Source: an uncultured Smithella sp. (GTDB taxonomy: Bacteria > Desulfobacterota > Syntrophia > Syntrophales > Smithellaceae). Taken from it: a stretch of DNA of 64,000 nucleotides. Shown here piece by piece: positions 5,058 to 36,493 of the stretch (position 1 is the first letter of the stretch; every line of letters begins with the position of its first letter). Location of the stretch: positions 7,843 to 71,842 of the forward strand of contig CAZSQS010000007.1 in the NCBI GenBank assembly GCA_964608995.1, given 5' to 3'. Made by a program: the position numbers and the translations under genes. A model generated the notes under the pieces. That model saw nothing but the letters and a program-made list of their open reading frames with translations. It ran no database searches and was not told where the DNA came from.

Positions 5058-5724
5058 AGCTGAAGAACGCGGCCTGGCGGGTGATTTTCAGCACTTTCAG
5101 CCCATCCGGCCGGGACTGACCTTCTTTGAGTGTATGCTCGTTGATCTGAACAAAGCGTTCATTGATGTCGGCACTGTAGAAATGTAAAAATATCTTGATT
5201 TCAGGAACGCGGCTTCTCGCCTCACCAGGCAATTTGTTAAGCGGCGGATATTTGTCGGCAGAAAAATTCCCTGTCTCCCCTTCACGAACTGGCGTTTGCT
5301 CTGTGTGCATATCCGTGGAACGCTCCGGCACGCGATCTGGCACATTCGCTGCGGGCTTCTCCTCCGGGGCATACGCCATATCCTCCTGTTTTTGCAGAAG
5401 CGGCGGATCGAGCGGTTTTTGGGATTCCTGAATCAATTTGGCATCGTATTCATACATCGGCTCAGGCGCAACGCTCGCCGCGTCCGGCGCCGTCTGGTTG
5501 TGAGCCGTGCTTCCCATTTTTGAAGCGGTTTTCGTCTGCTGAGCCCACCAGTAAATCCCCGCGACGTTGATGACGATTAACAAAACCGCCAGCGCCGCCA
5601 CATAGGGCCACCATTTTTTTCGATCGCGCGGCGGCTGATGATGGTGGTCGGAAAAAAGGTCCGGCGCCGCGCCGCGATGACGGTTCTTTTCGATTTTTTT
5701 CAACCCTTCGAGGATGTAAGACAT
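5017..5724 (-). CDS. GspB/ExeB-like single-pass membrane protein
   Basis: N-terminal MSYILEGLKKIEKNR motif and one TM helix (WWPYVAALAVLLIVINVAGIYWW). The start overlaps the stop of the upstream ExeA-like gene (TAATG). The 3' end overlaps convergent mltA by 41 nt. Confidence 0.5.
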   Translation of the reverse strand: MSYILEGLKKIEKNRHRGAAPDLFSDHHHQPPRDRKKWWPYVAALAVLLIVINVAGIYWWAQQTKTASKMGSTAHNQTAPDAASVAPEPMYEYDAKLIQESQKPLDPPLLQKQEDMAYAPEEKPAANVPDRVPERSTDMHTEQTPVREGETGNFSADKYPPLNKLPGEARSRVPEIKIFLHFYSADINERFVQINEHTLKEGQSRPDGLKVLKITRQAAFFSFKGQRFQMQAIDR

Positions 5725-8968: not shown

Positions 8969-9790
8969 TCAATATAAATTCCAACGACGGCACAAGGAAA
9001 CAAACGCATTGATATTATCCCACACCATTTTTTCCGCCGCATCCAATTCTTCGGTACAGGAAAATTCGGATGACAGACTCAGCAGGATGGGATTAAGCGG
9101 GGAGATCTCCCGCCCGAATTTTTCATAGTCAATGTGAGAGATCATGTACTGCGATCCGTCGAAATAATATTTACCCAGGCGGTTGGCTTCTTCCGAATGA
9201 AACGGCCAGGCCATTTTCCAGGATAAATATTCAAGCGCCGTTTCGCTGAGCCCGGGGAGATCAAAATCTTCCGCTTTGATTTCGCGGCCGATACGATCGG
9301 CAATCAGCTTAAAATACGTCACGACCAGATCGATGTCTGTCAGGCACAGGCCATACAGATACCAGTCTTTAATCAGCTTGAGCAAAATAAGCTGCTGGGA
9401 GCGCGGTATAAAATGATGGCTGGGGCACAGATGACCCGCGCAGACTTCCTGCCCGTAAAAAGAGACGCCGCGCAGATCCACGCCGCCATTTTGCAAAGGA
9501 TGCAAAAGACAACCGACGCGTTTTTCGTCGGCATCGAGAAAGCCCAGATACTCGCAGCAGTAAATGACTTCATAGCGCTTGCGGAAATCCTCCGAAGCCA
9601 GCGTCTCCTGCGCATAGCGCTCCACATCGGCGGGGGCCTTGACCATTTCGCGGAAACGTCTCGTCCGCGCGCGAAGTCTTTTTGTCAGGGATTCCCGCGA
9701 CGAATCCACATAATTATATAAACCGCAGCAGGCGCCGCAGGATTTTCCCGGATCCGGCTGGCACAACACTTTGATATCCGCAGACGACAT
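8969..9790 (-). CDS. Hypothetical Cys-rich protein (CxxCC motif, YkgJ/UPF0153-like N terminus)
   Basis: 273-aa ORF with SCGACCGLYNY near the N terminus and further Cys/His clusters (CAGHLCPSHH). No other domain recognised. Confidence 0.45.
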   Translation of the reverse strand: MSSADIKVLCQPDPGKSCGACCGLYNYVDSSRESLTKRLRARTRRFREMVKAPADVERYAQETLASEDFRKRYEVIYCCEYLGFLDADEKRVGCLLHPLQNGGVDLRGVSFYGQEVCAGHLCPSHHFIPRSQQLILLKLIKDWYLYGLCLTDIDLVVTYFKLIADRIGREIKAEDFDLPGLSETALEYLSWKMAWPFHSEEANRLGKYYFDGSQYMISHIDYEKFGREISPLNPILLSLSSEFSCTEELDAAEKMVWDNINAFVSLCRRWNLY

Positions 9791-10364: not shown

Positions 10365-12842
10365 ATGACACAAACTATTGCCGATGCCTTGTTGCATTTA
10401 GCTGAAAAACCGAGCCGCTATATCGGCACGGAAGTCTCTGCCGCGCGCAAATCCGCAGCGGATTTACGTTTTTTACTGGCCTTCCCCGACACCTATGAAG
10501 TGGGCATGTCGCATCTGGGCCTGCAAATTCTCTATGCCGTGCTCAACGCGCGCGAAGGCGTCTGGGCCGAGCGCTCATTTGCCCCTTGGCCGGATCGCGA
10601 AGCCCTGCTTCGCGAGCGCGGCTTGCCGCTGACCTCGCTGGAATCCGGCTCACCGCTTTCGCAGTTTGATCTGGTTGGTTTTTCACTGCAATATGAACTC
10701 TCTTACACCAATGTGCTCAATATGCTGGATTTGGGCGGCGTGGCGATTCGATCCGCCGACCGACGCGAAACGGATCCGCTTATTCTGGCGGGCGGCCCCT
10801 GCGCTTTTAATCCCGCGCCACTTTCGGCTTTCATCGATGCCTTTGTCATCGGCGAGGGGGAACAAGCCATCCTGGAAATTGCCGAGAGCGTCATCGAGTG
10901 CAAAAAGCAAACGCTTTCCCGGCGTGCCGCGCTCGAGAAGCTCGCGAGGATTCCGGGCGTCTATGTGCCCTCCCTGCATGTCCCCGGGAACGTCATCTCC
11001 AGGCGCGCGCCTGTCAATCTCAATGACTGGCCCCATCCTGTCTCGCCGGTGGTGCCGCTCATGCAAACCGTGCATGACCGCATCGTCATAGAGCTGGCCC
11101 GCGGCTGCACGCGCGGCTGCCGGTTTTGCCAGGCGGGCATGCTCTGGCGTCCGTATCGCGAACGAAACGCATCGCAAGTTCTGGAAATGGCAAAGCAGAC
11201 GCTCGGAAACACAGGACATGACGAAATCTCGCTTCTGGCGCTCAGCGCCGGCGATTACAGTTGTATTGAACCCCTGATGCAGGCGCTGATGCAAAAGCAT
11301 TCGGCTGAAAAAGTCGCGCTGGCGCTGCCGTCGCTTCGCGTGGAAACCCTGGGACAGGCGCTGATTGAGGAAATCAAGCGCACGCGCAAAACCAGTTTCA
11401 CGCTGGCGCCCGAGGCGGGAACAGACAAAATGCGCCGCATCATCAACAAGGGCAACACCGCGCAGGATCTTTTGACGTCCATCGATAAAGTCTTTGCCTC
11501 CGGGTGGAAAGCCGTCAAGCTCTACTTCATGATCGGGCTGCCCGGCGAAGATGAAAGCGATCTTGCCGGCATTGTAGATTTGAGCTACGCGGCGCTTGGC
11601 GCGGCAAAAAGGCGCGGCCAGATCACCGTGAGCCTGTCCACCTTTGTTCCCAAGCCGCACACACCGTTTCAGTGGGCCGGGCAGTTGTCTTTGGACCAAA
11701 CTAAGGAGCGGCAGAATTTCCTGCGGCAAAAAATGCACAACCGCAATCTCAACGTCAAATGGCACGACGCACGCATGAGCCTCCTGGAGGGTCTGTTTTC
11801 ACGCGGCGATGAACACATCGGCCACCTTCTGGAAATCGCATGGCGCAAGGGCTGCCGCTTTGACGGCTGGGGCGAGCTTTTGCGCTTTGATTTGTGGGAA
11901 AGCGCCATTGGCGAAGCCGGAATATCGGTTGACGACTATCTGCGGGAGCGATCCACCACCGAGCCCCTGCCTTGGGATTTTATTGACTGCGGCGTCAGCT
12001 GCGAATTTCTTATCGCCGAAAAACACAAAGCCATCGAGCAGCAAACCACGGCGGATTGCCGGTTTGATGTCTGTCAGGCCTGCGGCGTGTGTGACTTTAA
12101 AGAGATACAGAATATCTTTTCCGACAAAGACTTTGGCACGCCGCATCAGGCCCCTGTCGCACCTGCGCAGATGGCGCCCCTGCGTGAAAAAGTCTATCGA
12201 TTAAGCTTTGCCAAAACCGGCCGGTCACGATTTTTATCCCATCTGGAGCTCGCGTCGGCGCTGACGCGCGCGCTTCGACGAAGCCCCTTGCAGCTTTCCT
12301 ACTCCGAAGGCTTTCATCCGCATCCCAAAATCTCGTTTGCCACGGCCACCTCCGTGGGCATGGAAAGTTTCTCGGAATTGCTCGATATCACGGCCCGCGA
12401 GTTTCCAGGCGATCTGGCCGTGCTTCAGAAGAACATCAATGCCGCCTTGCCGGAAGGTGTTTATGTTACGGCCATTGCGCTTTTGCCTTACACCGCCCCG
12501 GACCTCGCCCGCGCGCTTAAGGGATTTTGCTATGATCTGGTCTTGCCCGCCGATACGGACGATTCGAGACTGCAAAGGCTGGATCACAGCCTGCGCGCAT
12601 TTCTGGCCGCGGACACGTATGTCATCACCCGCATGGCCAAAGGCAAATCAGTCAAGCGCGACATCCGTCCCTTTGTAAAAAGCCTCACGCTTTCGACGCC
12701 GGAAAAGAAAGTGATCGCCGAGGTCAGCCATGCGCAAAACGGCTCCGTGCGCCCGGTGGACATCATCGAACACATTATGGGATTTCCGGCCGATGCCATT
12801 CATCTTGTCACCATCGTTAAAACACACACGCTTCTGATCTGA
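10365..12842 (+). CDS. B12-binding-domain radical SAM protein fused to a DUF2344-type C-terminal domain (TIGR03960/TIGR03936-like)
   Basis: ELARGCTRGCRFCQAG matches the CxxxCxxC radical SAM motif. There is an N-terminal B12-binding-like region and a C-terminal YRLSFAKTGRSRFLSHLEL...EGFHPHPKISF segment typical of DUF2344. Confidence 0.8.
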   Translation: MTQTIADALLHLAEKPSRYIGTEVSAARKSAADLRFLLAFPDTYEVGMSHLGLQILYAVLNAREGVWAERSFAPWPDREALLRERGLPLTSLESGSPLSQFDLVGFSLQYELSYTNVLNMLDLGGVAIRSADRRETDPLILAGGPCAFNPAPLSAFIDAFVIGEGEQAILEIAESVIECKKQTLSRRAALEKLARIPGVYVPSLHVPGNVISRRAPVNLNDWPHPVSPVVPLMQTVHDRIVIELARGCTRGCRFCQAGMLWRPYRERNASQVLEMAKQTLGNTGHDEISLLALSAGDYSCIEPLMQALMQKHSAEKVALALPSLRVETLGQALIEEIKRTRKTSFTLAPEAGTDKMRRIINKGNTAQDLLTSIDKVFASGWKAVKLYFMIGLPGEDESDLAGIVDLSYAALGAAKRRGQITVSLSTFVPKPHTPFQWAGQLSLDQTKERQNFLRQKMHNRNLNVKWHDARMSLLEGLFSRGDEHIGHLLEIAWRKGCRFDGWGELLRFDLWESAIGEAGISVDDYLRERSTTEPLPWDFIDCGVSCEFLIAEKHKAIEQQTTADCRFDVCQACGVCDFKEIQNIFSDKDFGTPHQAPVAPAQMAPLREKVYRLSFAKTGRSRFLSHLELASALTRALRRSPLQLSYSEGFHPHPKISFATATSVGMESFSELLDITAREFPGDLAVLQKNINAALPEGVYVTAIALLPYTAPDLARALKGFCYDLVLPADTDDSRLQRLDHSLRAFLAADTYVITRMAKGKSVKRDIRPFVKSLTLSTPEKKVIAEVSHAQNGSVRPVDIIEHIMGFPADAIHLVTIVKTHTLLI

Positions 12843-12916
12843 CGGAACAAAAAACAGAAATAATAATCAATATATTAGCGGATTAACCGGTCATTGCCTG
12901 TATCATTGCTGTCTCA

Positions 12917-12948
12917 GTCCCGCCCATCCGAACGGGACATATCTGTCC
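12917..12948 (+). promoter_or_regulatory. Upstream inverted repeats GTCCCG-N10-CGGGAC overlapping GGACA-N4-TGTCC (candidate activator site)
   Basis: Read directly: GTCCCGCCCATCCGAACGGGACATATCTGTCC. The GGACA half-site starts exactly 100 nt upstream of the GG of the TGGCAT box at 13034. The same architecture occurs at 14615-14649. Confidence 0.45.
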
Positions 12949-13033
12949 GATAACCTGTGGGTTAGGCAGGTCATAACTGCCTGCCTCCAACCCATGTGTA
13001 TAAATATCATACACATAGAATTTCAGTGGGATA

Positions 13034-13050
13034 TGGCATAAAATTTGATT
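13034..13050 (+). promoter_or_regulatory. Sigma-54-like -24/-12 promoter candidate
   Basis: TGGCATAAAATTTGATT compared with the consensus TGGCACG-N4-TTGC. GG and the -12 TTG are spaced correctly and the -12 C is replaced by A. It lies 93 nt upstream of ATG 13128. It shares 13 of 17 positions with 14735-14751. Confidence 0.45.
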
Positions 13051-13127: not shown

Positions 13128-14516
13128 ATGAAAAAAAGCTTTTTAATGGTTCCCATTTTGTTATTGGCGTTTCTGATGACCGCCACATCGGGTCATGCGC
13201 AGTGGTGGTGGATATCCAGCTCCTCCTCTTCGAGTTCATCTTCGTCCAGCTCTTCTTCTTCGAGTTCGTCCGGATCAAGCTGGTGGTGGATTTCAAGTTC
13301 TTCTTCGTCTTCGTCTTCTTCGAGTTCATCGTCATCGAGCTCCAGCAGCTCTTCTTCCGGTTCTTACTCCGATCCCGGAACAGGCCCGTTTGCTTTAGTG
13401 CCGGACAATCAGGTGGCTAATGCCTGCAAGCTGGATCCCAATCTGCTCAAAACCGCCGACCGGACCATCGGCGCGCCCTATATCATTGTGCGCTACGGAA
13501 AGCTCTGCCATCAATACCTGCCCAACGGCACGGACCGCGCGGCTGAAGTTTATTCCACCACCAAATCGCTGGGCGGGGCCGTCACGGGCGCGGTTGCCTA
13601 TGAAACACGCAATATGAACCGCACCGGCCGCAAAACCGGACCGCTTTCAGACGTTGACCGTGTGGATCACTGGCTGGATCGTTTCAGTTATAATGATGAC
13701 GCCCTGATCGCCCACGTGCTGGCCATGGTGGCCCATAACCGCAGCCTGACCAACGGCCGCATGACCTATGAGTACGATACCGTCGGCTCCGTTCAGATCA
13801 ACAGCTTAAGCGATATCATCAACACGGCCATCGCGCAGGATTCCAGCCGCCTGGGCCGCAACATCGATGAATTCACAAAACGGTTTGTTTTCAATCCGTT
13901 GGGCATGACCAACTCCACCTGGTCCAACGGATCGTCCAATAAAACCTTCGCCTACACCTGGTCAACGACCATGCACGACATGGCACGTCTGGGGCTGATG
14001 ATCCTGCACCGTGGCACGTATAACGGCAAACGCGTGATGTCGGAGGGCTGGGCCTATCGCATGACGCATCCCGCTTTTGAAGAGGCCAACACCGCTTACG
14101 GCTATTTGACCTGGCTCAATTCCCGCGGTGGCGGCACGGGTCCCGGAGGCGCCGGCACGGGTACGGATGGTGATACGTGCGCGCCGGCAGCTTTATGGAA
14201 CAGCTACCCGCACTATCCGTCCACATATCCGAACTGCAAAGCCAGTCTTGGAAATAATTGCAATCAGGTCAATGACATGGGCGTCTGGAGCGCACAGGGC
14301 ATGGGCGGCCAGTTCATTGTGGGCCATCCCGGACTGGATCTCCTGATCGTTGCTAAAAATTTCAGCGGTGGCGACGGCCCCACCGGCCTTTGGAAGGCCA
14401 TTCGTCCGGCGCTGGTGGCGCTGGATCCCGTTTACAAGGGTAACGAATCGTCTTTCTGTTCGGCCTACGCCGCAACGACTTACGCGCCGGATATGCCGAC
14501 CCAGCCCAAGCCGTAG
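13128..14516 (+). CDS. Secreted beta-lactamase-fold serine hydrolase (esterase-like) with N-terminal WWW-polyserine tail
   Basis: GGAGGAG RBS. Signal peptide MKKSFLMVPILLLAFLMTATSGHA with an AxA-type cleavage site before QWWW. The tail is QWWWI-S19-GSS-WWWI-S22-G. The catalytic part has the S-x-x-K motif (YSTTKSLGG). Confidence 0.8.
   Translation: MKKSFLMVPILLLAFLMTATSGHAQWWWISSSSSSSSSSSSSSSSSSSGSSWWWISSSSSSSSSSSSSSSSSSSSSSGSYSDPGTGPFALVPDNQVANACKLDPNLLKTADRTIGAPYIIVRYGKLCHQYLPNGTDRAAEVYSTTKSLGGAVTGAVAYETRNMNRTGRKTGPLSDVDRVDHWLDRFSYNDDALIAHVLAMVAHNRSLTNGRMTYEYDTVGSVQINSLSDIINTAIAQDSSRLGRNIDEFTKRFVFNPLGMTNSTWSNGSSNKTFAYTWSTTMHDMARLGLMILHRGTYNGKRVMSEGWAYRMTHPAFEEANTAYGYLTWLNSRGGGTGPGGAGTGTDGDTCAPAALWNSYPHYPSTYPNCKASLGNNCNQVNDMGVWSAQGMGGQFIVGHPGLDLLIVAKNFSGGDGPTGLWKAIRPALVALDPVYKGNESSFCSAYAATTYAPDMPTQPKP
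13200..13361 (+). repeat. WWW-polyserine tail module (protein-level low-complexity repeat)
   Basis: Codon-by-codon reading gives CAG TGG TGG TGG ATA, 19 Ser codons, GGA TCA AGC TGG TGG TGG ATT, 22 Ser codons, then GGT. All six Ser codons are used. Confidence 0.95.
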
Positions 14517-14561
14517 CAGGCACATTACTGCATTGTTTGGAACGCACTAAAAATTCATTAA

Positions 14562-14598
14562 CCTGAGGAGGACGGGCTTTAAGCCCGCCCTCCTCAGG
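14562..14598 (+). terminator. Rho-independent terminator candidate after the first tail-bearing gene
   Basis: CCTGAGGAGGACGGGC / GCCCGCCCTCCTCAGG form a 16-bp stem with one mismatch and a 5-nt loop, followed by TATTTACATTTTT. Confidence 0.6.
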
Positions 14599-14614
14599 TA
14601 TTTACATTTTTCTT

Positions 14615-14649
14615 GTCCCGTAGCGTCCCATCGCGGGACAAATATGTCC
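14615..14649 (+). promoter_or_regulatory. Second copy of the GTCCCG...CGGGAC / GGACA-N4-TGTCC upstream inverted repeats
   Basis: GTCCCGTAGCGTCCCATCGCGGGACAAATATGTCC. The GGACA at 14636 is exactly 100 nt upstream of the GG at 14736. Confidence 0.45.
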
Positions 14650-14734
14650 GACCATCTGATGGCCACATCAGGCACGTTCACCTTATAAATCAATATCACT
14701 TAACAATACAATAGTTTACAAACCATGTGCCTCA

Positions 14735-14751
14735 TGGCACAGATATTGATT
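14735..14751 (+). promoter_or_regulatory. Sigma-54-like -24/-12 promoter candidate
   Basis: TGGCACAGATATTGATT has a perfect TGGCAC -24 box and TTGA at the -12 position. It lies 99 nt upstream of ATG 14835. Confidence 0.5.
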
Positions 14752-14834
14752 GTTGATGTGTGCCACAAAGAGATGCGCCGTAAATGGATTTTCGGCGGAA
14801 AATTAAAAAAAACAAACAGCGCGGAGGGGAAAAG

Positions 14835-15773
14835 ATGAAAAAGTTTTTATTTATAGTTCCAATTCTGTTTTTGGCATTTCTGATTGCCTCATCAAACGGT
14901 TACGCCCAGTGGTGGTGGTTCTCCAGTTCATCATCTTCCAGTTCAAGTTCGTCTTCCTCAAGTTCAAGTTCAAGTTCAGGTTCAACGTGGTGGTGGATTT
15001 CCAGTTCATCATCTTCCAGTTCGTCGTCCAGTTCTTCATCCTCTTCATCCTCAGGAGCCACAGGTTCAGTTGAAGCCAGAATTGAAGCGGGTGGAACCAT
15101 CCCGGCGGGAACCTACACGCTGACCCGGAAAATTTCCATCTCAAAAAGCGGACTGACCATCACGGCCAACAATGTCATTCTTGACGCGAAAAACTTAACC
15201 GACACGTCCTCGGGCGACGCCATCACCATCAGTGGCAGCAATAACAAGCTCATCGGCATCACCGTCAAGAATGCCGGACATAACGGCATATTAATCAAAG
15301 GCAACGGCAACACCCTCCAGAACTGCATCACGCATTCCAATAAGAACACAGGGATAAACATCAAGGGCAGCGCGGCCAACAACCTCATCACCGGCTGTAA
15401 ATCCTATAACAATTACGACACGCATACCTCCGGTGAAAATGCCGACGGCTTTGGCGTGAAGGATTGCACCGGCAGCGGCAATAAATTTGAAAACTGCGAA
15501 GCCTGGGATAATTCAGACGATGGCTGGGATTTCTGGGGCACGACGGGCGCCGTAACCGTCATCGGTTGTTATGCGCACGATAATGGAAGAGGTTCAGCCG
15601 GAGACGGCAATGGCTTCAAGCTGGGTGAAAGCGGCGTTTGCGGCAGGCATTATTTGAAAGATTGCACCGCCAAGAACAATCTCGCCTGCGGTTTTACGAA
15701 AAATGGCAACACCTGCACAATCACCTATGTCAATTGCGTCAGCAGCAATAACGGAAAGGTGGACAAACGGTAG
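14835..15773 (+). CDS. Secreted right-handed parallel beta-helix protein, pectate-lyase-like (PL9-like by motif) with N-terminal WWW-polyserine tail
   Basis: GGAGGGGAAAAG precedes ATG 14835, and the track start at 14784 lacks an RBS. Signal peptide MKKFLFIVPILFLAFLIASSNGYA precedes QWWWF-S19-GST-WWWI-S18. Repeated beta-helix turns (NNKLIGITVKNAGHNGILIKGNGNTLQNC...), GENADGFGVKD and DNSDDGWDFWG. Confidence 0.75.
   Translation: MKKFLFIVPILFLAFLIASSNGYAQWWWFSSSSSSSSSSSSSSSSSSSGSTWWWISSSSSSSSSSSSSSSSSSGATGSVEARIEAGGTIPAGTYTLTRKISISKSGLTITANNVILDAKNLTDTSSGDAITISGSNNKLIGITVKNAGHNGILIKGNGNTLQNCITHSNKNTGINIKGSAANNLITGCKSYNNYDTHTSGENADGFGVKDCTGSGNKFENCEAWDNSDDGWDFWGTTGAVTVIGCYAHDNGRGSAGDGNGFKLGESGVCGRHYLKDCTAKNNLACGFTKNGNTCTITYVNCVSSNNGKVDKR
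14907..15053 (+). repeat. WWW-polyserine tail module
   Basis: QWWWF, 19 Ser codons, GGT TCA ACG TGG TGG TGG ATT, 18 Ser codons, then GGA. Confidence 0.95.
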
Positions 15774-15903
15774 TTTTTTGTCGGATCAGAAAAAGGCGGC
15801 TATTTGAAAAAAGGCAGGTACCAAAAGGCTTCGGCGGATCAAATGAGACAAAGCCGTTTATTGCCGGAGCAAATATAAATCAGTTTTAAAGGGAGGGGAA
15901 AAG

Positions 15904-16710
15904 ATGAAAAAGTATTTATGGATGATTCCGGTTTTGTTTTTGGCATTCCTGATTGCCTCATCAAACGGTTATGCCCAGTGGTGGTGGTTCTCCAGCTCAT
16001 CATCTTCCAGTTCAAGTTCGTCTTCCTCAAGCTCAAGTTCAGGCTCAACCTGGTGGTGGATTTCCAGTTCCTCATCCTCCAGCTCATCCTCTTCCAGTTC
16101 GTCTTCGTCAAGCTCTTCGTCTTCAGGATCGGGTGGAACGATGACGATTACCAGCACGATTATCGTTAAAGCGGGGGCCACCTATGACGGCAAGGGCGTC
16201 ACCATCAAGGCCGTGGGGCTTGGCGACGGCAGTCAGGACGAAAATCAGAAACCCATTTTTCGGCTCGAAAACGGCGCAACGCTTAAAAACGTCAACATCG
16301 CCGCGCCCGGCGCAGACGGTGTGCATTGCTACGGCGGCTGCACCGTCACCAACGTGGTCTGGCAGGATGTGGGCGAGGATGCCCTGACGATTAAATCCTC
16401 CGGAACGGTCACAATCAATAATTGTAAATTTTACAAAGCCACCGACAAGGTCATTCAGGTCAACGCTGCAAGCACCCTGTATGTCAACAACAGTTCCGCC
16501 GACACCATGGGCAAATTTATTCGCCAGAATGGCGGAACGACGTTCACCTGCACATGGTATTTAAACGGCGTGAACATTAAAAATGCCTCGGAATGCATCG
16601 CGCGAACGGACAGCTCGACCACGAAACTTTATTACAGAAACCTGACCTACTCCAACGTCGGCACCTTGTGGAAGTTCCCCAATGCCGGCAGCCAGGTCAA
16701 ACCCTACTAG
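15904..16710 (+). CDS. Secreted pectate lyase, PL3-type, with N-terminal WWW-polyserine tail
   Basis: Same RBS string GGAGGGGAAAAG. Signal peptide MKKYLWMIPVLFLAFLIASSNGYA precedes QWWWF-S17-GST-WWWI-S21. The catalytic part (GDGSQDENQKPIFRLENGATLKNVNIAAPGADGVHCYGGCTVTNVVWQDVGEDALTIKSSG...FIRQNGGTTF) closely resembles Bacillus/Fusarium PL3 pectate lyases as I remember them. Confidence 0.85.
   Translation: MKKYLWMIPVLFLAFLIASSNGYAQWWWFSSSSSSSSSSSSSSSSSGSTWWWISSSSSSSSSSSSSSSSSSSSSGSGGTMTITSTIIVKAGATYDGKGVTIKAVGLGDGSQDENQKPIFRLENGATLKNVNIAAPGADGVHCYGGCTVTNVVWQDVGEDALTIKSSGTVTINNCKFYKATDKVIQVNAASTLYVNNSSADTMGKFIRQNGGTTFTCTWYLNGVNIKNASECIARTDSSTTKLYYRNLTYSNVGTLWKFPNAGSQVKPY
15976..16125 (+). repeat. 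WWW-polyserine tail module
   Basis: QWWWF, 17 Ser codons, GGC TCA ACC TGG TGG TGG ATT, 21 Ser codons, then GGA. Confidence 0.95.
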
Positions 16711-16919
16711 TCTGCGTTCAAGGCTGGTCTGGTTTATTTTTTTTCGACAAAGATGAGAAACACCGACATGCTCTTCCAGGGAAGGAAGATCAGGGCGCCC
16801 CAAGTCCATGAAAGGGTGCGGGGCGCCTAAACCTGGTCATACCCGATACCATCGGAAACCGCCATATCGGCCTTTGGACCATTGACATGAAAGCCGGATG
16901 AGTCCGCACGGAGGGGAAA

Positions 16920-18554
16920 ATGAGAAAAAGCTTTTTGATCTTTCCTGTTTTGTTTCTGGCATTGCTGGCAATAGCCACAACAAGCCATGCCCAGTGGTGG
17001 TGGATTTCGAGCTCATCTTCCTCTTCCAGCTCATCCTCCAGCTCTTCATCCTCAGGCTCCTCGTGGTGGTTTATCAGTTCATCATCTTCTTCATCCAGTT
17101 CGTCGTCCAGTAGTTCGTCGTCATCTTCTTCTTCTTCCTCCTCGTCGTCTTCATCGTCGAGTTCTTCGTCAGGTACGACGTTTAAAAACCCGCTTAACGG
17201 TTCCGGCCCTGACCCGTGGATGACTTACTATAACGGAAATTACTACATGGCGGCAACCACGTGGGGCGGCGCGAACACGGGTCTGACCATGCGCAAGGCG
17301 CCAATCATCGCGGCGTTGAAAACCGCGCCCCAGACGCGTATCTGGCAGGATTCGACCTCATCGCGTTGCTGCAATATGTGGGCGCCGGAGTTCTTCCTGC
17401 TTAACGGCCCCAACGGCTGGCGCTGGTATGGCTATTACACGGCGGGCCCGACGACCTGTTGCGACGGCCAGCGGCTCCATGTCATTGAAAGTGCGGGAAC
17501 CGACCCGATGGGACCCTATACCTATAGGGGTCAACTTTCCGATACCACCGGCGGATGGATGATTGACGGCAGCATCCTCCAGTTAAACGGCAAACTCTAC
17601 CTGCTGTTTTCCGCATGGAGCGGCAGTAATCAAAATGTTTACATCGTCGGCATGACCAATCCATGGAGTCTTACCGGCAACCGGGTGCTGCTCTCGACGC
17701 CAACCTACAGTTGGGAGAAACAGGGAGGCAACGTCAACGAGGGCCCCGTGGCGATCCAGAGAAATGGCAAGACGTCTGTAGTCTATTCCGCAAGCGCCTG
17801 CGCCAATCAAAATTACGCAATGGGCCAGATGACCCTGACGGGAACCAACCCGCTGGTGGCCTCTGCCTGGAGCAAGAAATCGACCGCCGTCTTCACAAGG
17901 GCCAACGGGGTTTACGGCCCCGGGCACAACACCTTCTTTACCTCCCCGGATGGATCGGAAACCTGGATGGTCTATCACGGCAATGCCTCTTCGACCGGCG
18001 GATGTGATATGTACCGCCAGCCGCATATCAAAAAGATCGCTTTTAACAGCGATAACACCCCCAGTTTGGGAAGCCCGATCAATCCGGCCAACTCCGTCAC
18101 CGTCCCCTCCGGGGATAAAGGCGCGGGCGCGCGGCCCGTCTATCGCATCGCCAACCGCAATAGCGCCAAGGTGTTGGAAGTCGCCAACTGTAACGCAGCG
18201 GATGGCACCAACATCCAGCAATACGCGTCACTGGGCAATACCTGCCAGCAGTGGACCACGCAGGATACCGACAGCGGGTATGTCATGATTGTGAATGTCG
18301 CTACCGGCAAACTTCTGGAAGCAGCGGGATGCGGCACATCGGATGGAACAAACATCCAGCAGTGGAGCTGGCTGAAAAACACCTGCCAGCAGTGGAAGCT
18401 GGTGACCACTACCAGCCCGTACGTGAAAATCATCAACCGCGCAAGCGGCAAGGTGCTGGATGTCTCCAACTGCTCCACCGCCAATGGCGGCAATGTCCAG
18501 CAATGGAGCGATCTGGGAAATTCCTGCCAGGAATGGCAGATCACATCACCGTAA
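16920..18554 (+). CDS. Secreted GH43-family glycoside hydrolase with C-terminal ricin-type (CBM13-like) beta-trefoil and N-terminal WWW-polyserine tail
   Basis: GGAGGGGAAA RBS. Signal peptide MRKSFLIFPVLFLALLAIATTSHA precedes QWWWI-S16-GSS-WWFI-S32. GH43-like motifs are GPDPWMTYYNGNYYM, WAPEF, GPGHNTFF and WMVYH. The C-terminal region has three QxW repeats (CQQWTT, CQQWKL, CQEWQI) with IQQY/IQQW/VQQW. Confidence 0.8.
   Translation: MRKSFLIFPVLFLALLAIATTSHAQWWWISSSSSSSSSSSSSSSSGSSWWFISSSSSSSSSSSSSSSSSSSSSSSSSSSSSSSSGTTFKNPLNGSGPDPWMTYYNGNYYMAATTWGGANTGLTMRKAPIIAALKTAPQTRIWQDSTSSRCCNMWAPEFFLLNGPNGWRWYGYYTAGPTTCCDGQRLHVIESAGTDPMGPYTYRGQLSDTTGGWMIDGSILQLNGKLYLLFSAWSGSNQNVYIVGMTNPWSLTGNRVLLSTPTYSWEKQGGNVNEGPVAIQRNGKTSVVYSASACANQNYAMGQMTLTGTNPLVASAWSKKSTAVFTRANGVYGPGHNTFFTSPDGSETWMVYHGNASSTGGCDMYRQPHIKKIAFNSDNTPSLGSPINPANSVTVPSGDKGAGARPVYRIANRNSAKVLEVANCNAADGTNIQQYASLGNTCQQWTTQDTDSGYVMIVNVATGKLLEAAGCGTSDGTNIQQWSWLKNTCQQWKLVTTTSPYVKIINRASGKVLDVSNCSTANGGNVQQWSDLGNSCQEWQITSP
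16992..17174 (+). repeat. WWW-polyserine tail module (second triplet is WWF)
   Basis: QWWWI, 16 Ser codons, GGC TCC TCG TGG TGG TTT ATC, 32 Ser codons, then GGT. Confidence 0.95.
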
Positions 18555-18597
18555 GAGAAAAAAGAAGCTATTAAATTCATGAAGGAAGGAGTTCACT

Positions 18598-19821
18598 ATG
18601 AAAGACAGGTTTTTTAAAAGAGGAATCTCCGTTCAGATGGCGCTGACCGGACTCGTTTTTGCGCTGGTTTTGTTTGCGGCAGGCGCTAATCAGGCTTTTG
18701 CGCTATCCGGCGATTACCGCACGCACGACCCCAGTATGATCCGGGCGACCAACGGCTGCTATTACGCCTTTTCCACCGGCGACAACGCCTACAATCGGGG
18801 AAACATCCAGATTCGCAGATCCTGCGATCTGGTCAGCGGCTGGAAGCTGCTTGGCACGGTCTTTACCACCGTCCCCTCCTGGATCAGCTCCGCAATCGGC
18901 TCGACGCCGGGAAATCTCTGGGCGCCGGATATCAATTACTTTAACAACAAATACTATCTGTACTATTCCGCCTCCACGTTCGGCTCGAACCGCTCGGCCA
19001 TCGGTCTGGCCACGGCTACAAACATCGAAGGCCCCTGGACGGATTCGGGTCAGGTGATTCGCTCCTCAACATCCAACAACTACAACTGTATCGATCCGGA
19101 AATCGCCTGGACCATCACCAACAATCAGCGCGCCGAGATGTGGCTGTTGTTCGGCTCCTTCTGGGACGGTATCAAAATGCGTCAGCTCAACAATTCGACC
19201 GGCAAACTCTCTACGACCAAAACCACGCTGTATTCACTGGCCTCCCGTGGCGGCGGCGCAATTGAGGCCGCCTCCGTCGCGTGGCGCAACGGGTATTACT
19301 ATCTGTTCGTTTCATTCGACAAATGCTGCAGCGGCACGAGCAGCACCTACCGCATCATGGTGGGCCGCTCCAAAAATATCACCGGGCCGTATGTCGATAA
19401 AAGCGGCGTGGATATGCGAAACGGCGGCGGCACGCAGGTTCTGACTAAATCCAGCAACATGGTCGGCCCCGGCGGCCAGGATGTCTTTCTTGACGGGTCA
19501 ACCTACCGCATGGTCTATCACTACTATGATTCCAACCAAAACGGCGACTTTCGGATGGCCATCCGGGATCTGAACTGGTCGGGCGACTGGCCCGCGGCAG
19601 GCTCCATGTCTTCTGCTGTCAGTTCGTCTTCGTCAAGTTCCTCCAGCTCGTCGAGTTCATCCTCCAGTTCTTCGTCCAGCTCGTCGTCCTCGAGTTCGTC
19701 TTCCTCGTCTTCAAGCTCATCGTCTTCGAGTTCGTCAGGATCAAGCTGGTGGTGGTCCACAAGTTCGTCTTCAAGCTCATCGTCTTCGAGTTCGTCAGGA
19801 TCAAGCTGGTGGTGGTTTTAA
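18598..19821 (+). CDS. Secreted GH43 arabinanase-like glycoside hydrolase with C-terminal WWW-polyserine tail
   Basis: GAAGGAAGGAG RBS only 43 nt after the previous gene. It has its own, different signal peptide (…LVLFAAGANQAFA). GH43 arabinanase-like motifs are YRTHDPSMI, LWAPDINYFNNKYYLYYSAS, DPEIAW, FGSFWDGIKM and GPGGQDVF. The C terminus is S39-GSS-WWW-ST-S12-GSS-WWWF-stop. Confidence 0.8.
   Translation: MKDRFFKRGISVQMALTGLVFALVLFAAGANQAFALSGDYRTHDPSMIRATNGCYYAFSTGDNAYNRGNIQIRRSCDLVSGWKLLGTVFTTVPSWISSAIGSTPGNLWAPDINYFNNKYYLYYSASTFGSNRSAIGLATATNIEGPWTDSGQVIRSSTSNNYNCIDPEIAWTITNNQRAEMWLLFGSFWDGIKMRQLNNSTGKLSTTKTTLYSLASRGGGAIEAASVAWRNGYYYLFVSFDKCCSGTSSTYRIMVGRSKNITGPYVDKSGVDMRNGGGTQVLTKSSNMVGPGGQDVFLDGSTYRMVYHYYDSNQNGDFRMAIRDLNWSGDWPAAGSMSSAVSSSSSSSSSSSSSSSSSSSSSSSSSSSSSSSSSSSSSSSGSSWWWSTSSSSSSSSSSSSGSSWWWF
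19621..19818 (+). repeat. C-terminal WWW-polyserine tail module containing an exact 52-nt direct repeat (19705-19756 and 19765-19816)
   Basis: Codon reading gives 39 Ser, GGA TCA AGC TGG TGG TGG TCC ACA, 12 Ser, GGA TCA AGC TGG TGG TGG TTT, then TAA. The 52-mer TCGTCTTCAAGCTCATCGTCTTCGAGTTCGTCAGGATCAAGCTGGTGGTGGT occurs twice with a 60-nt period. Confidence 0.95.
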
Positions 19822-19856
19822 TTCAACTGCTCATTGAGCAAATCGCAAACACACAA

Positions 19857-19886
19857 AAAGCCGGGGATTGCCCCGGCTTTTTTTTA
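19857..19886 (+). terminator. Rho-independent terminator after the five-gene block
   Basis: AGCCGGGG ATTG CCCCGGCT hairpin followed by TTTTTTTT. Confidence 0.8.
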
Positions 19887-19916
19887 TCCAAGATATCATT
19901 ATCGTATCTGGACCAC

Positions 19917-32341: not shown

Positions 32342-32578
32342 ATTGCGTTACACATCTTTCTTTCCAAACATTCATCGCGTCGGCGGACAAAATCGTTTTT
32401 ACCGTACAGTCTTAAATTAACTTTTTACCTGAAAAAATCAACTACCGATTTTTCTTTTTCGCCATAAAGACCGATATTGAGTCAAATATCGCATCCGACG
32501 CGAAAATAATTGACACTGTGGCTGTTTTTAAGGTATTTTTCGCGGAAAGTCAGATATATCCGGTATCGGGAAGGTTGC

Positions 32579-34702
32579 ATGATGATCTCTAAAAAAATTT
32601 TTCTTTCGGCCCTTGTCTTGATCCTTTCTTTGTCCCCGATGGCGCAGGCTAACCCCGAAGCGCCCCGCTGGGTTTCTCTTTCAACGGATTCCCCTGATAC
32701 AGTGCGGGAAATCATTCGCTCGGAAGTGGACAATCGTGAATTCTTTTCCACGTCTCAGGAAGAAAGAAAAAACCTCAAAGCCGTGGAGGACGAAAAGGAA
32801 AAAGAAGATGCGGGATATAAAAACGCCGTCATCACCGCAAACCGCGAGTTCATCCGGGCCAAAAAAAAGCGAGATGACATCACCTCGCAGTTTCACATGT
32901 CTTCAACCGACCTTGATGAATCCGCCCGCGCCATCAAGTCCATCCGCACTACGATAGAAAATCTCGACCACCAGATTGCCCGTTATGAACAGGACATCAA
33001 AACCCAGCAGGATTCTCTCAAACGCTGGCTGCAAACCGAAAAACAGGGCGAAGCGCTCGTGGCCGTCATCTATACGCGCGGTTTCCGCGATAAAACTCAC
33101 GATCTCGAAGCGAAGGCGGACATCGCCTCCGCGCCGCTGATTGCCTCGTATATGGGCACCTTCATTAAGTCTTTCACCAAAGTCGTCAACAATGTCACCG
33201 CGGTGGATTTTATTCGCGCCACCGAAGAAGGCACGGCCAAGTGGAACAACGAAGAGCCAATTCGCACCGCGCTGGAAACCACGAACAAAGGCACATCGTA
33301 TTTGAGGATCAAGCGCTACGACCTCTATCCGTTTCAGGAAAACAAAACGGGCAAAGTCAAAGCCGGTGGCAGTTCCGGTTTTAAAGCGGCGCTCATCAAT
33401 TCCCGTACGGAGCTGGACGAGTTTATCAAGGCCAACGATTATGATGCCACGAAACATGATCTGGATCGCGCTTACCGCGCCATTGCCAACGTCAACCGCA
33501 GCAACATCCTCGCGGAAGAAGGGTTGAACGAACAGGTCAAATCCTTTCAGGACAGAATTCTCAGTTTACAAAGCAAAATCCGCGAAGCCAGCTCGGAGCG
33601 AGGCGCCCAGCAGGCACAGCTCAAACGCCGGGAAGAAAGCTATTACAAACTAAGCCTTGATGTCGCCGCCATCCGGGAACGCAAAGACGCGGCGGAAAGA
33701 GTGTTTCAGCAGGCCCAGGGCGCCTTGCAGGAAAAAAAGCGCACGCATGAATCCATCATCATTAAATCGGCGCTGGCCGCCACCAAAGGCTCGCAGACAC
33801 CCGCCGAAGCCTCGGCGGAAGTCATCCTCGACAAGCTGGCCGAAGTCAAAAACGACGCCAAGACGCAGCACTCGTCATCGGCTACCGAAGTGACCAATTT
33901 CCAGGTCACGGCGGAAAGCGCCACGCAATCCATTACGGAAGCGCGCATCACCGCCGTGCGGCTGATCTCGTTTATCAATGAAGGCGACAGCGTCCGCGTG
34001 AAAATGGCGTTTCGCGTTCGAACCATTTTAGAAGAACAACCGCCCGCGGAAGATCCGGCCAAAGCCACTGCACCGGCCCCCGTCCAGGCGGAAACTGCAC
34101 CGCCTGCGCCCGCAGCGAAAGAAACGCCTGTTGCCCCGGCCACCCCGGCCGCCCCGGCAACTCCGCCTCCTGCTCAGCCTCAACCCAAGGTGGCGGATGC
34201 CCCTGCTCCAACGCCAGTCCCTGCGCCCAAGGTCATTGCGCCTTTCAAACGATCCTACCGCCCACTGGCAGTAAAAGACGCGCTGGGCTGCGCCTTTGAA
34301 CTGCGCAGCGCAACGCTCACGCAGGAAGGCCTGCGCGTTTTGGTCGAAGTCATCAATTTGGATACGGAAGTGCGTAAAGTCGCCTTCTACGATGATCGCT
34401 TCGGCAGCTGGCCGCGATCCAAGGTATTCGACGAAGCGGAAAACGCCTATTTAACATCCGATGCCTACGTCTGGCAGGGATCAGAAAAAAAACTGATGGT
34501 TGAAATAGACGGGCGGGGACGCGGCGTTGAAATTCAGCCGCAGACCTCCGTAACGATGGAGCTGATCTTTAAAGATATTCCCAACACGGCTAAGAAGGTT
34601 AAAATTCAACTGCACCCGTTTATTTACCATTACCCGGGCGGTAGAAGAGAAACCTGGCAGGAATTTGACCTGGATCTGCCGGTCATGACGATCCGGCGTT
34701 AA
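32579..34702 (+). CDS. Secreted coiled-coil protein with Pro/Ala-rich linker and C-terminal beta-rich domain, function unknown
   Basis: Start is taken at ATG 32579 (MMISKKIFLSALVLILSLSPMAQA signal peptide), and the track ORF has an unlikely 23-codon extension. Long heptad-like charged region, then a ~65-aa P/A-rich segment (PAEDPAKATAPAPVQAETAPPAPAAKETPVAPATPAAPATPPPAQPQPKVADAPAPTPVPAPK). Confidence 0.6.
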   Translation: MMISKKIFLSALVLILSLSPMAQANPEAPRWVSLSTDSPDTVREIIRSEVDNREFFSTSQEERKNLKAVEDEKEKEDAGYKNAVITANREFIRAKKKRDDITSQFHMSSTDLDESARAIKSIRTTIENLDHQIARYEQDIKTQQDSLKRWLQTEKQGEALVAVIYTRGFRDKTHDLEAKADIASAPLIASYMGTFIKSFTKVVNNVTAVDFIRATEEGTAKWNNEEPIRTALETTNKGTSYLRIKRYDLYPFQENKTGKVKAGGSSGFKAALINSRTELDEFIKANDYDATKHDLDRAYRAIANVNRSNILAEEGLNEQVKSFQDRILSLQSKIREASSERGAQQAQLKRREESYYKLSLDVAAIRERKDAAERVFQQAQGALQEKKRTHESIIIKSALAATKGSQTPAEASAEVILDKLAEVKNDAKTQHSSSATEVTNFQVTAESATQSITEARITAVRLISFINEGDSVRVKMAFRVRTILEEQPPAEDPAKATAPAPVQAETAPPAPAAKETPVAPATPAAPATPPPAQPQPKVADAPAPTPVPAPKVIAPFKRSYRPLAVKDALGCAFELRSATLTQEGLRVLVEVINLDTEVRKVAFYDDRFGSWPRSKVFDEAENAYLTSDAYVWQGSEKKLMVEIDGRGRGVEIQPQTSVTMELIFKDIPNTAKKVKIQLHPFIYHYPGGRRETWQEFDLDLPVMTIRR

Positions 34703-36416: not shown

Positions 36417-36493
36417 GGGCGATTAGCTCAGCTGGATAGAGTACTGGCCTCCGAAGCCAGGTGCCGTGAGTTCGAATCTCACATCGCCCACCA
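36417..36493 (+). tRNA. tRNA-Arg (anticodon CCG), CCA encoded
   Basis: The hand-folded cloverleaf has acceptor GGGCGAT/ATCGCCC, D stem GCTC/GAGT, anticodon stem CTGGC/GCCAG with loop CTCCGAA, a 5-nt variable loop, and T arm GTGAG-TTCGAAT-CTCAC. 77 nt. Confidence 0.9.

Follow-up and report, generated by a model that had tools for sequence, protein, structure and literature searches.

The 64-kb window analysed here (64,000 nucleotides of an uncultured Smithella sp., assembly GCA_964608995.1, contig CAZSQS010000007.1, positions 7,843 to 71,842) contains a cluster of five plus-strand genes, termed genes 1 to 5. Genes 1 and 2 are each preceded by a box resembling the -24/-12 promoter of sigma-54 (RpoN) and, farther upstream, by an inverted repeat. 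From sequence comparison it appears likely that both regions are sigma-54 promoters with enhancer-like arrays of half-sites, that they belong to a conserved, Smithellaceae-like regulon of secreted hydrolases, and that the corresponding enhancer-binding protein (EBP) is encoded elsewhere. The regulatory elements and the genes of the cluster (domains assigned with Pfam) are as follows.

12911-12949, + strand: enhancer-like half-site array of gene 1 (GTCTC 12911-12915, GTCCCG 12917-12922, CGGGACA 12933-12939, TGTCCG 12944-12949)
12935-12948, + strand: core palindrome GGACA-N4-TGTCC of gene 1, centre at about -118
13034-13050, + strand: putative sigma-54 promoter of gene 1, TGGCATAAAATTTGATT (TGGCAT-AAAAT-TTGA; GG at 13035-13036, A at -12 = 13048)
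13128-14516, + strand: gene 1, secreted, with signal peptide, two WWW-polySer modules and a weak beta-lactamase-fold (serine hydrolase-like) domain
14614-14650, + strand: enhancer-like half-site array of gene 2 (TGTCCCG 14614-14620, GTCCC 14625-14629, CGGGACA 14634-14640, TGTCCG 14645-14650)
14636-14649, + strand: core palindrome GGACA-N4-TGTCC of gene 2, centre at about -118
14735-14751, + strand: putative sigma-54 promoter of gene 2, TGGCACAGATATTGATT (TGGCAC-AGATA-TTGA; GG at 14736-14737, A at -12 = 14749)
14835-15773, + strand: gene 2, secreted Pel9A-like right-handed beta-helix protein (pectate-lyase-like) with WWW-polySer leader
15904-16710, + strand: gene 3, pectate lyase (PF03211) with WWW-polySer leader
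16920-18554, + strand: gene 4, GH43 with ricin-type lectin domain
18598-19821, + strand: gene 5, GH43 with C-terminal polySer-WWW tail

Re-reading of the sequence placed both boxes and both palindromes at the positions given in the original prediction. The two boxes agree at 13/17 positions. In the -24 element (TGGCAT, 13034-13039; TGGCAC, 14735-14740) the invariant GG is kept in both, and in the -12 element TTG is kept and C is replaced by A in both, as the original prediction had noted. The distance from GG to the ATG is 93 nt at gene 1 and 99 nt at gene 2, as had been predicted, and transcription would be expected to start at ~13060 and ~14761, respectively. GGAGG-type ribosome-binding sites precede both ATGs (13128 and 14835). 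The search pattern that had been proposed for these promoters, TGGCA-N8-TTGA, was a miscount and misses both sites; the real geometry is TGGCA-N6-TTGA. When the window was scanned upstream of genes 3, 4 and 5, no sigma-54-like box was found, in agreement with the earlier claim that these genes lack the motif. As a separate observation, TGTGCC-TCA-TGGCACA forms an inverted repeat that overlaps the -24 box of gene 2, with a third GTGCCAC copy at the predicted gene 2 start (14760-14766; all within 14726-14766). This repeat is not kept at gene 1 or in the related contigs L062 and L063 described below, and could be a gene-2-specific operator or a product of chance.

At both genes the core palindrome GGACA-N4-TGTCC overlaps a wider repeat, GTCCCG...CGGGAC (12917-12938 and 14615-14639). 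The start of GGACA lies 100 nt from the GG of the box in both cases, with 85 nt between TGTCC and TGGCA. In the 64 kb, the exact core occurs solely at these two sites (~0.06 expected for a 10-base palindrome), and with one mismatch allowed it was found 6 times against 1.65 expected. Alignment of the two intergenic regions with MAFFT yielded two discrete conserved blocks, CCCATC..CGGGACAWATMTGTCCGA and ATGGCAYARAWWTTGATTG, in poorly conserved surroundings. The spacers are A/T-rich (58-61% A+T), and the 85-nt spacer of gene 1 shares 35% ungapped identity with that of gene 2, compared with 26 +/- 5% in shuffles. GTCCCG...CGGGAC was also considered as a hairpin or terminator and rejected, as both copies form weak folds (-10.9 and -13.5 kcal/mol; z = -1.3 and -2.5) and no U-tail follows.

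Taken alone, the window offers a case for sigma-54 promoters that is suggestive but not compelling. Because the box by itself is unremarkable in the window, its significance rests on its placement, on the identical spacing over a poorly conserved 85-nt spacer, and on conservation across genomes.

For comparison, homologs of gene 2 were traced to two long JGI contigs, L062 and L063, and the window and both contigs (~100 kb in total) were analysed on both strands. L062 is syntenic with the window (MltA, T2SSB, AAA_22, Zn-ribbon, radical SAM/DUF2344, beta-helix, GH43, SLT_2, two MCPs, L21, L27, Obg), with protein identities of 66% for radical SAM, 70% for GH43 and 78% for the beta-helix protein. 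Its hydrolase cluster comprises two genes only and is inserted at the equivalent place, behind the radical SAM/DUF2344 gene. The gene 2 ortholog of L062 is preceded by GTGGCATATAACTTGCTG (L062 9911), which matches the sigma-54 consensus perfectly, including the C at -12, and has the best consensus score in the whole locus. Another sigma-54-like match, CTGGAACCCCAAATGCA, precedes GTGGCATATAACTTGCTG by 22 nt (L062 9889-9926), and the two may be tandem boxes. The gene 5 ortholog of L062 lies past a terminator and has its own box, ATGGCATATAAATTGA / ATGGCATATAAATTGAAC (L062 11152), with TTGA at -12; GTGTCCCGAAGAAAGACATATCTGTCCGATTC sits 102 nt upstream of the GG of this box.

L063 has a different genomic context, with a cluster of GH12, PETase-like, alpha/beta-hydrolase, GH43 and pectinesterase genes. 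Its gene 2 ortholog is preceded by ATGGCATACATATTGT / ATGGCATACATATTGTAA, of the form TGGCAT-N5-TTGT. Upstream of three other genes (PETase-like, alpha/beta-hydrolase) lie TTGGCATGTATTCTGCTTT, CTGGCATGGATTCTGCTTT and CGGCATGCGTCTTGCTG, which are near-canonical (TGGCAT-N5-(C/T)TGCT) and have the three best intergenic consensus scores of L063.

The spacer between TGGCAY and TTG is exactly 5 nt in 8/8 boxes of the window, L062 and L063, which is the canonical TGGCAC-N5-TTGC (GG-N10-GC) arrangement. TGGCA[CT]-N5-TTGN occurs only five times in the ~100 kb of the three loci, and all five copies are on the coding strand upstream of secreted-hydrolase genes; the chance expectation for TGGCAY-N5-TTG is 1.67 in the window, 0.28 in L062 and 0.61 in L063. 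When the five leader regions were aligned, TGGCA-A-A--TTG was the sole invariant stretch within the box region. Across orthologous promoters the -12 position is C, A or T, with TGGCA and TTG constant.

Conservation extends to the upstream repeats. The 16-nt core GACATATCTGTCCGAT is identical in the upstream region of the L062 GH43 gene (gene 5 ortholog) and in the gene 1 palindrome. Arrays of two to four half-sites of the type G[GA]GAC / GTC[CT]C, in both orientations, lie upstream of 8/8 boxes, for example GTCTC-a-GTCCCG-N10-CGGGACA-N4-TGTCCG at gene 1 and GGAGAC-t-GTCTCC-N5-GAGACA at L062 9911. Enrichment of 5-mers was calculated for positions -180 to -30 of the eight boxes, with the three loci as background, and the following pairs were over-represented.

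GAGAC/GTCTC: 11 observed, 1.6 expected, p = 1e-6
TCTCA/TGAGA: 10 observed, 1.6 expected, p = 9e-6
GGACA/TGTCC: 12 observed, 2.8 expected, p = 4e-5

Measured to its centre, the core palindrome lies at about -118 in the window and at about -120 in L062, and the L063 arrays occupy positions between about -75 and -150. EBPs bind ~100-150 bp upstream, and several half-sites at this distance are the pattern expected for an oligomerising EBP (PMC7057263). Since neutral intergenic DNA is unalignable at such divergence, the boxes and the palindrome core appear to be under selection. The claim of a sigma-54 box with an enhancer-like inverted repeat ~100 nt upstream is supported by the boxes of L062 and L063, which score highest for the sigma-54 consensus in the intergenic DNA of these contigs, by the identical 16-nt core and by the half-site enrichment. 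Further support comes from TTGA as one of two -12 motifs selected in vitro by P. putida sigma-54 RNA polymerase (PMC11997794) and from a host lineage within the phylum reported to be richest in EBP genes (PMC12316311). The stricter claim of exactly 100 nt holds within the window and fails as a rule for the family, given the 102 nt in L062 and the arrays at about -75 to -150 elsewhere.

Further features were noted in the related contigs. Three sigma-54-type promoters of L063 share ATTGAACAC-N-AAATTGAACA, a TTGAACA direct repeat located between half-site array and box (~9490-9515, - strand; ~5480-5500, - strand; ~13290-13315, + strand). The element is absent from the window and may be the site of a second regulator. 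The 5' leaders of the gene 2 orthologs are ~200 nt long (L062 9936-10130, L063 9793-10001) versus ~75 nt in the window, and the L062 and L063 leaders are unconserved save for a AAGGAGGTGA-like motif ~65-75 nt before the real ribosome-binding site. A riboswitch or leader function was considered and dropped, as the 5' untranslated regions are not conserved beyond the box and the regulatory regions gave no match in Rfam. On the high-GC contig L064, which encodes a gene 2 homolog (67% identical), no such promoter was found, which indicates that the module is lineage-specific. Close homologs of gene 1 were on truncated contigs, and the distant ones, in unrelated contexts, had no motif upstream.

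From these elements we infer sigma-54 dependence and the following course of activation. The promoter would be TGGCAY-N5-TTGA, in which GG occupies -24/-25, G lies at -13 and the A at -12 is unusual; the enhancer would comprise multiple G[GA]GACA / TGTC[CT]C half-sites, its core CGGGACA-N4-TGTCCG being centred near -118. RNA polymerase with sigma-54 would occupy the box as a closed complex. Upon a signal, presumably a pectin- or arabinan-derived cue that possibly acts via a sensor kinase, an NtrC-family EBP encoded outside the window would oligomerise on the half-site array. The EBP would then loop the ~85-bp A/T-rich spacer, contact the polymerase and open the promoter by ATP hydrolysis. Two units would be driven in this way, gene 1 alone (up to a strong terminator) and gene 2 together with gene 3. 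rpoN is widespread in Thermodesulfobacteriota. Because of its lineage (Smithellaceae), the host genome is likely to contain rpoN and EBP genes. Thermodesulfobacteriota have been reported as the phylum richest in EBP genes (PMC12316311).

Several observations weigh against sigma-54 promoters of this kind. The -12 C is among the best-conserved promoter positions and is A in both window boxes. In an in vitro selection from a large random library with sigma-54 RNA polymerase of P. putida, both TTGAAT and TTGCAT were recovered as -12 motifs, and the top 15% of expressed templates in vitro had TTGCAT only, not TTGAAT (PMC11997794). TGGCAY-N5-TTG was found 2 times in the window against 1.67 expected, i.e. 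the box alone is not enriched, and TGGCACN5TTGCW with up to 2 mismatches has fewer matches in the window than expected. By a crude consensus-weighted score, the window boxes rank only ~24th window-wide, because the -12 C is missing; within intergenic DNA only, both tie for the top score. L062 9911 has no exact GGACA palindrome and carries GAGAC-type repeats instead, and spacing at L062 11152 departs from 100 nt. An IHF consensus was not found in the spacers at up to 1 mismatch. The 64-kb window itself encodes neither rpoN nor an EBP, as the original prediction had stated: Pfam searches of all open reading frames (ORFs) of at least 300 aa were negative for both, and a six-frame scan for GAFTGA/Walker-A motifs detected no EBP in the window, L062 or L063. 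Both window regions also precede near-identical 5' coding modules, and their similarity could partly reflect shared ancestry rather than selection.

A pattern search beyond the window also gave no support. The composite pattern GGGACANNNNTGTCCGN{70,100}TGGCANNNNNNTTGM was scanned over GTDB genomes (596 Gb), the representatives of which do not include the window's own genome, and over JGI metagenomes. Matches were at chance level (19 in GTDB against ~17 expected; 35 in JGI metagenomes), and no further Smithellaceae instance was among the GTDB and JGI matches. Their taxonomy is scattered, and the gap distribution is flat, without a peak at 84-85 nt. Some matches (L005, L006, L008/L046/L053, L010, L012, L014 and L017) look like genuine sigma-54 promoters, but do not establish a family.

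Among these matches, L010 (Desulfosarcina alkanivorans, NZ_AP021874.1) has the palindrome GGGACAATCTTGTCCG 77 nt upstream of the box CTGGCACAAAAATTGA, and both lie directly downstream of two adjacent EBP genes of PAS-AAA+-HTH_8 architecture (L010 5574-7520). The locus was found via the pattern itself, and only the adjacency of the EBP genes is independent support, because it was not part of the search pattern. The downstream gene of L010, ~240 nt away, looks by eye from its translation like a BCCT-type transporter gene, and a second box, CTGGCATTGCGTTGCT, its spacing short by one nt, lies closer to it. In L005 (Larkinella soli NZ_QTJY01000005.1) and L017 (labelled Eubacteriales), GGGACA-N4-TGTCCG lies 84 or 95 nt upstream of a canonical TGGCAT-N5-TTGC, and these sites are directly before apparent FtsX/MacB-like permease genes (by eye from translations). 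A third GTCC(C) half-site lies upstream in L012, L014, L040 and L052. In other phyla, too, GGGACA-N4-TGTCCG may act as a binding site for EBPs.

An alternative is that the TGGCAY-N5-TTG box is bound by a factor other than sigma-54, either as the operator of a dimeric transcription factor or by another alternative sigma factor. Transcription could in that case start from a weak sigma-70 or extended -10 element, e.g. the TAAAAT / TATAAA-like hexamers inside the box. The A/T-rich spacer of the box, with -10-like hexamers in most copies, is compatible with this, as are the missing -12 C in 3/5 TGGCAY-N5-TTGN copies and the TGTGCC-TCA-TGGCACA repeat that overlaps the gene 2 box. However, the positions that never vary coincide exactly with the sigma-54 consensus (TGGCA ... 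TTG at canonical spacing). No conserved -35-like element lies 17 bp upstream, and scans for sigma-70-type promoters gave chance-level, positionally unconserved matches. The orthologous promoter of L062 is a perfect consensus, three L063 boxes are near-canonical, and the gene 2 repeat is unconserved in other copies. We regard this explanation as unlikely.

It is also rather improbable that the box is a genuine sigma-54 promoter but the palindrome binds a conventional dimeric repressor or co-regulator, with the EBP acting elsewhere, e.g. at the flanking GTCTC/GAGAC repeats. A 14-bp perfect palindrome is typical of many helix-turn-helix dimers, L062 9911 and the L063 promoters keep the GAGAC/GTCYC repeats without an exact palindrome, and the L063 promoters contain the extra conserved ATTGAACAC-N-AAATTGAACA element. 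Enhancer geometry (PMC7057263), on the other hand, is matched by the centre at about -118 and by spacings of 100, 100 and 102 nt in three promoters. The GGGACA half-site and the flanking GAGACA, GTCCC and GTCTC look like one family, and the same palindrome adjoins EBP genes in L010.

Finally, that the similarity is a non-functional remnant of a 5' module (upstream region, ribosome-binding site, signal peptide, WWW-polySer leader) copied between genes 1 to 3 would suit the nearly identical ribosome-binding sites and leader coding sequences of genes 2 and 3 and a spacer identity (35%) slightly over random, but is very improbable and largely refuted by cross-genome conservation: conservation is confined to two discrete blocks at identical spacing across a near-random 85-nt spacer, gene 3 carries the copied leader without the boxes, and the same blocks occur in L062 and L063, at 66-78% protein identity, before genes without the WWW-polySer leader, which rules out simple co-duplication of the 5' module.

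The remaining features of the cluster are listed below.

10365-12842: radical SAM / DUF2344 gene, upstream neighbour (Pfam)
13200-13360, 14907-15060, 15976-16130 and 16992 onward: WWW-polySer modules of genes 1-4
14561-14612, + strand: strong intrinsic terminator after gene 1 (-33.9 kcal/mol hairpin, then T-rich tail)
16706-16745, + strand: terminator-like hairpin with U8 tail after gene 3 (-13.2 kcal/mol, z = -3.4)
19615-19821: two polySer-GSSWWW modules at the C-terminus of gene 5
19855-19888, + strand: intrinsic terminator closing the cluster (-20.5 kcal/mol)

Because of the very strong terminator after gene 1, genes 1 and 2 are taken to be separate transcription units. The prediction that no terminator lies between genes 2 and 5 was partly wrong. 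No stable hairpin was found by folding at 15770-15830, between genes 2 and 3, and gene 3 is probably co-transcribed with gene 2. The hairpin with U8 tail after gene 3 (16706-16745) contradicts this prediction, so that genes 4 and 5 may need another promoter; they may be reached by read-through from gene 2 or have another promoter of their own. The 200-nt intergenic region before gene 4 contains a GC-rich inverted repeat, GGGCGCCCC...GGGGCGCC, at ~16793-16828.

In genes 1-4, two WWW(I/F) modules, each followed by ~20 serines, are encoded directly past the signal peptide. The L062 and L063 orthologs have plain signal peptides without WWW-polySer modules, and a gene 1 homolog in L003 (73% identical) has a WW-polySer variant. 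WWW-polySer may be a lineage-specific module for surface anchoring or glycosylation. Convergent SLT_2 and MCP genes (Pfam) come after gene 5. The Rho protein of the window is 94-98% identical to Rho of Smithellaceae/Smithella metagenome-assembled genomes (MAGs; Syntrophales, Desulfobacterota). Smithellaceae are known mainly for syntrophic metabolism (fatty-acid and alkane oxidation). A pectin/arabinan-type cluster of carbohydrate-active enzymes (beta-helix lyase-like, PF03211, two GH43) is present at 13128-19821 in this Smithellaceae genome. Elsewhere in the window, a 730-aa ORF without Pfam match (32510-34702) and a 753-aa ORF with an eCIS core domain (PF13699; 36621-38882) were noted. The latter adjoins tRNA-Arg(CCG) (36417-36493), the only tRNA found by a tRNA scan of the window.

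Tentatively, a Smithellaceae-like lineage of Desulfobacterota would possess a dedicated sigma-54/EBP regulon for secreted polymer-degrading enzymes, with the undescribed half-site G[GA]GACA and tolerance of A or T at -12. With the same reserve, its enzymes would comprise the pectate-lyase-like beta-helix protein, GH43, PETase-like and other alpha/beta hydrolases, and the beta-lactamase-fold hydrolase. If true, Desulfobacterota would provide an example of direct sigma-54 control over extracellular plant-polymer hydrolases. A new enhancer motif would also be defined (G[GA]GACA arrays around a GGGACA-N4-TGTCCG core), with which Smithellaceae MAGs could be searched for the EBP and its regulon. The natural -12 A/T variants would join the set of conserved sigma-54 promoters, and A or T at this position may tune the tightness of promoter silencing without the activator. 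Such a regulon would support the view that regulated saccharolytic capacity exists in some members of a 'syntroph' family. Understanding of the sigma-54 mechanism is unchanged.

Related systems are known from several groups. The EBPs LevR and CelR of Bacillota carry PRD/EIIA regulatory domains. There, as proposed here, sigma-54 and a dedicated EBP turn on carbohydrate catabolism upon substrate (PMC12316311). The LevR/CelR targets are transporters of the phosphotransferase system and intracellular enzymes, in contrast to the extracellular pectin- and arabinan-active enzymes of a Gram-negative member of the Desulfobacterota. In Desulfosarcina alkanivorans (L010), GGGACA-N4-TGTCCG lies 77 nt upstream of CTGGCAC-N5-TTGA, i.e. 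the palindrome and the -12 A are the same as in the window. Unlike the window, L010 has adjoining EBP genes, a BCCT-type-looking transporter gene (by eye) ~240 nt away as target, and an off-spacing second box.

The sigma-54 regulome that Kazakov et al. (2015, PMC4641369) described for Desulfovibrio vulgaris and other Desulfobacterota belongs to the same phylum-level lineage and likewise includes many EBPs. Its promoter consensus is tGGcacg / tTGCt, with EBP-specific palindromic sites upstream of conserved promoters (PMC4641369). EBP genes are described as co-localised with their target operons there (PMC4641369), whereas none is present in the 64 kb studied here. TGTC and GACA had no match in the text of PMC4641369, in a text search that did not extend to targets such as glycoside hydrolases or pectate lyases.

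Promoters of the NtrC/NifA type (glnAp2, nifH) share the TGGCAC-N5-TTGC spacing, the GG and G at their proper positions, a dyad-symmetric activator region of multiple half-sites ~100-150 bp upstream (PMC7057263), and the intergenic position in sense orientation to the gene. They differ from the promoters described here in the -12 C, which is A in the window boxes and T in L063. The half-site G[GA]GACA was matched to no described EBP site, the spacer has no IHF-consensus site, the EBP gene is not adjacent, and the targets are secreted polymer hydrolases. The kind of system is well known; its novelty lies in the genes targeted, in the half-site motif and in the naturally occurring -12 variants.

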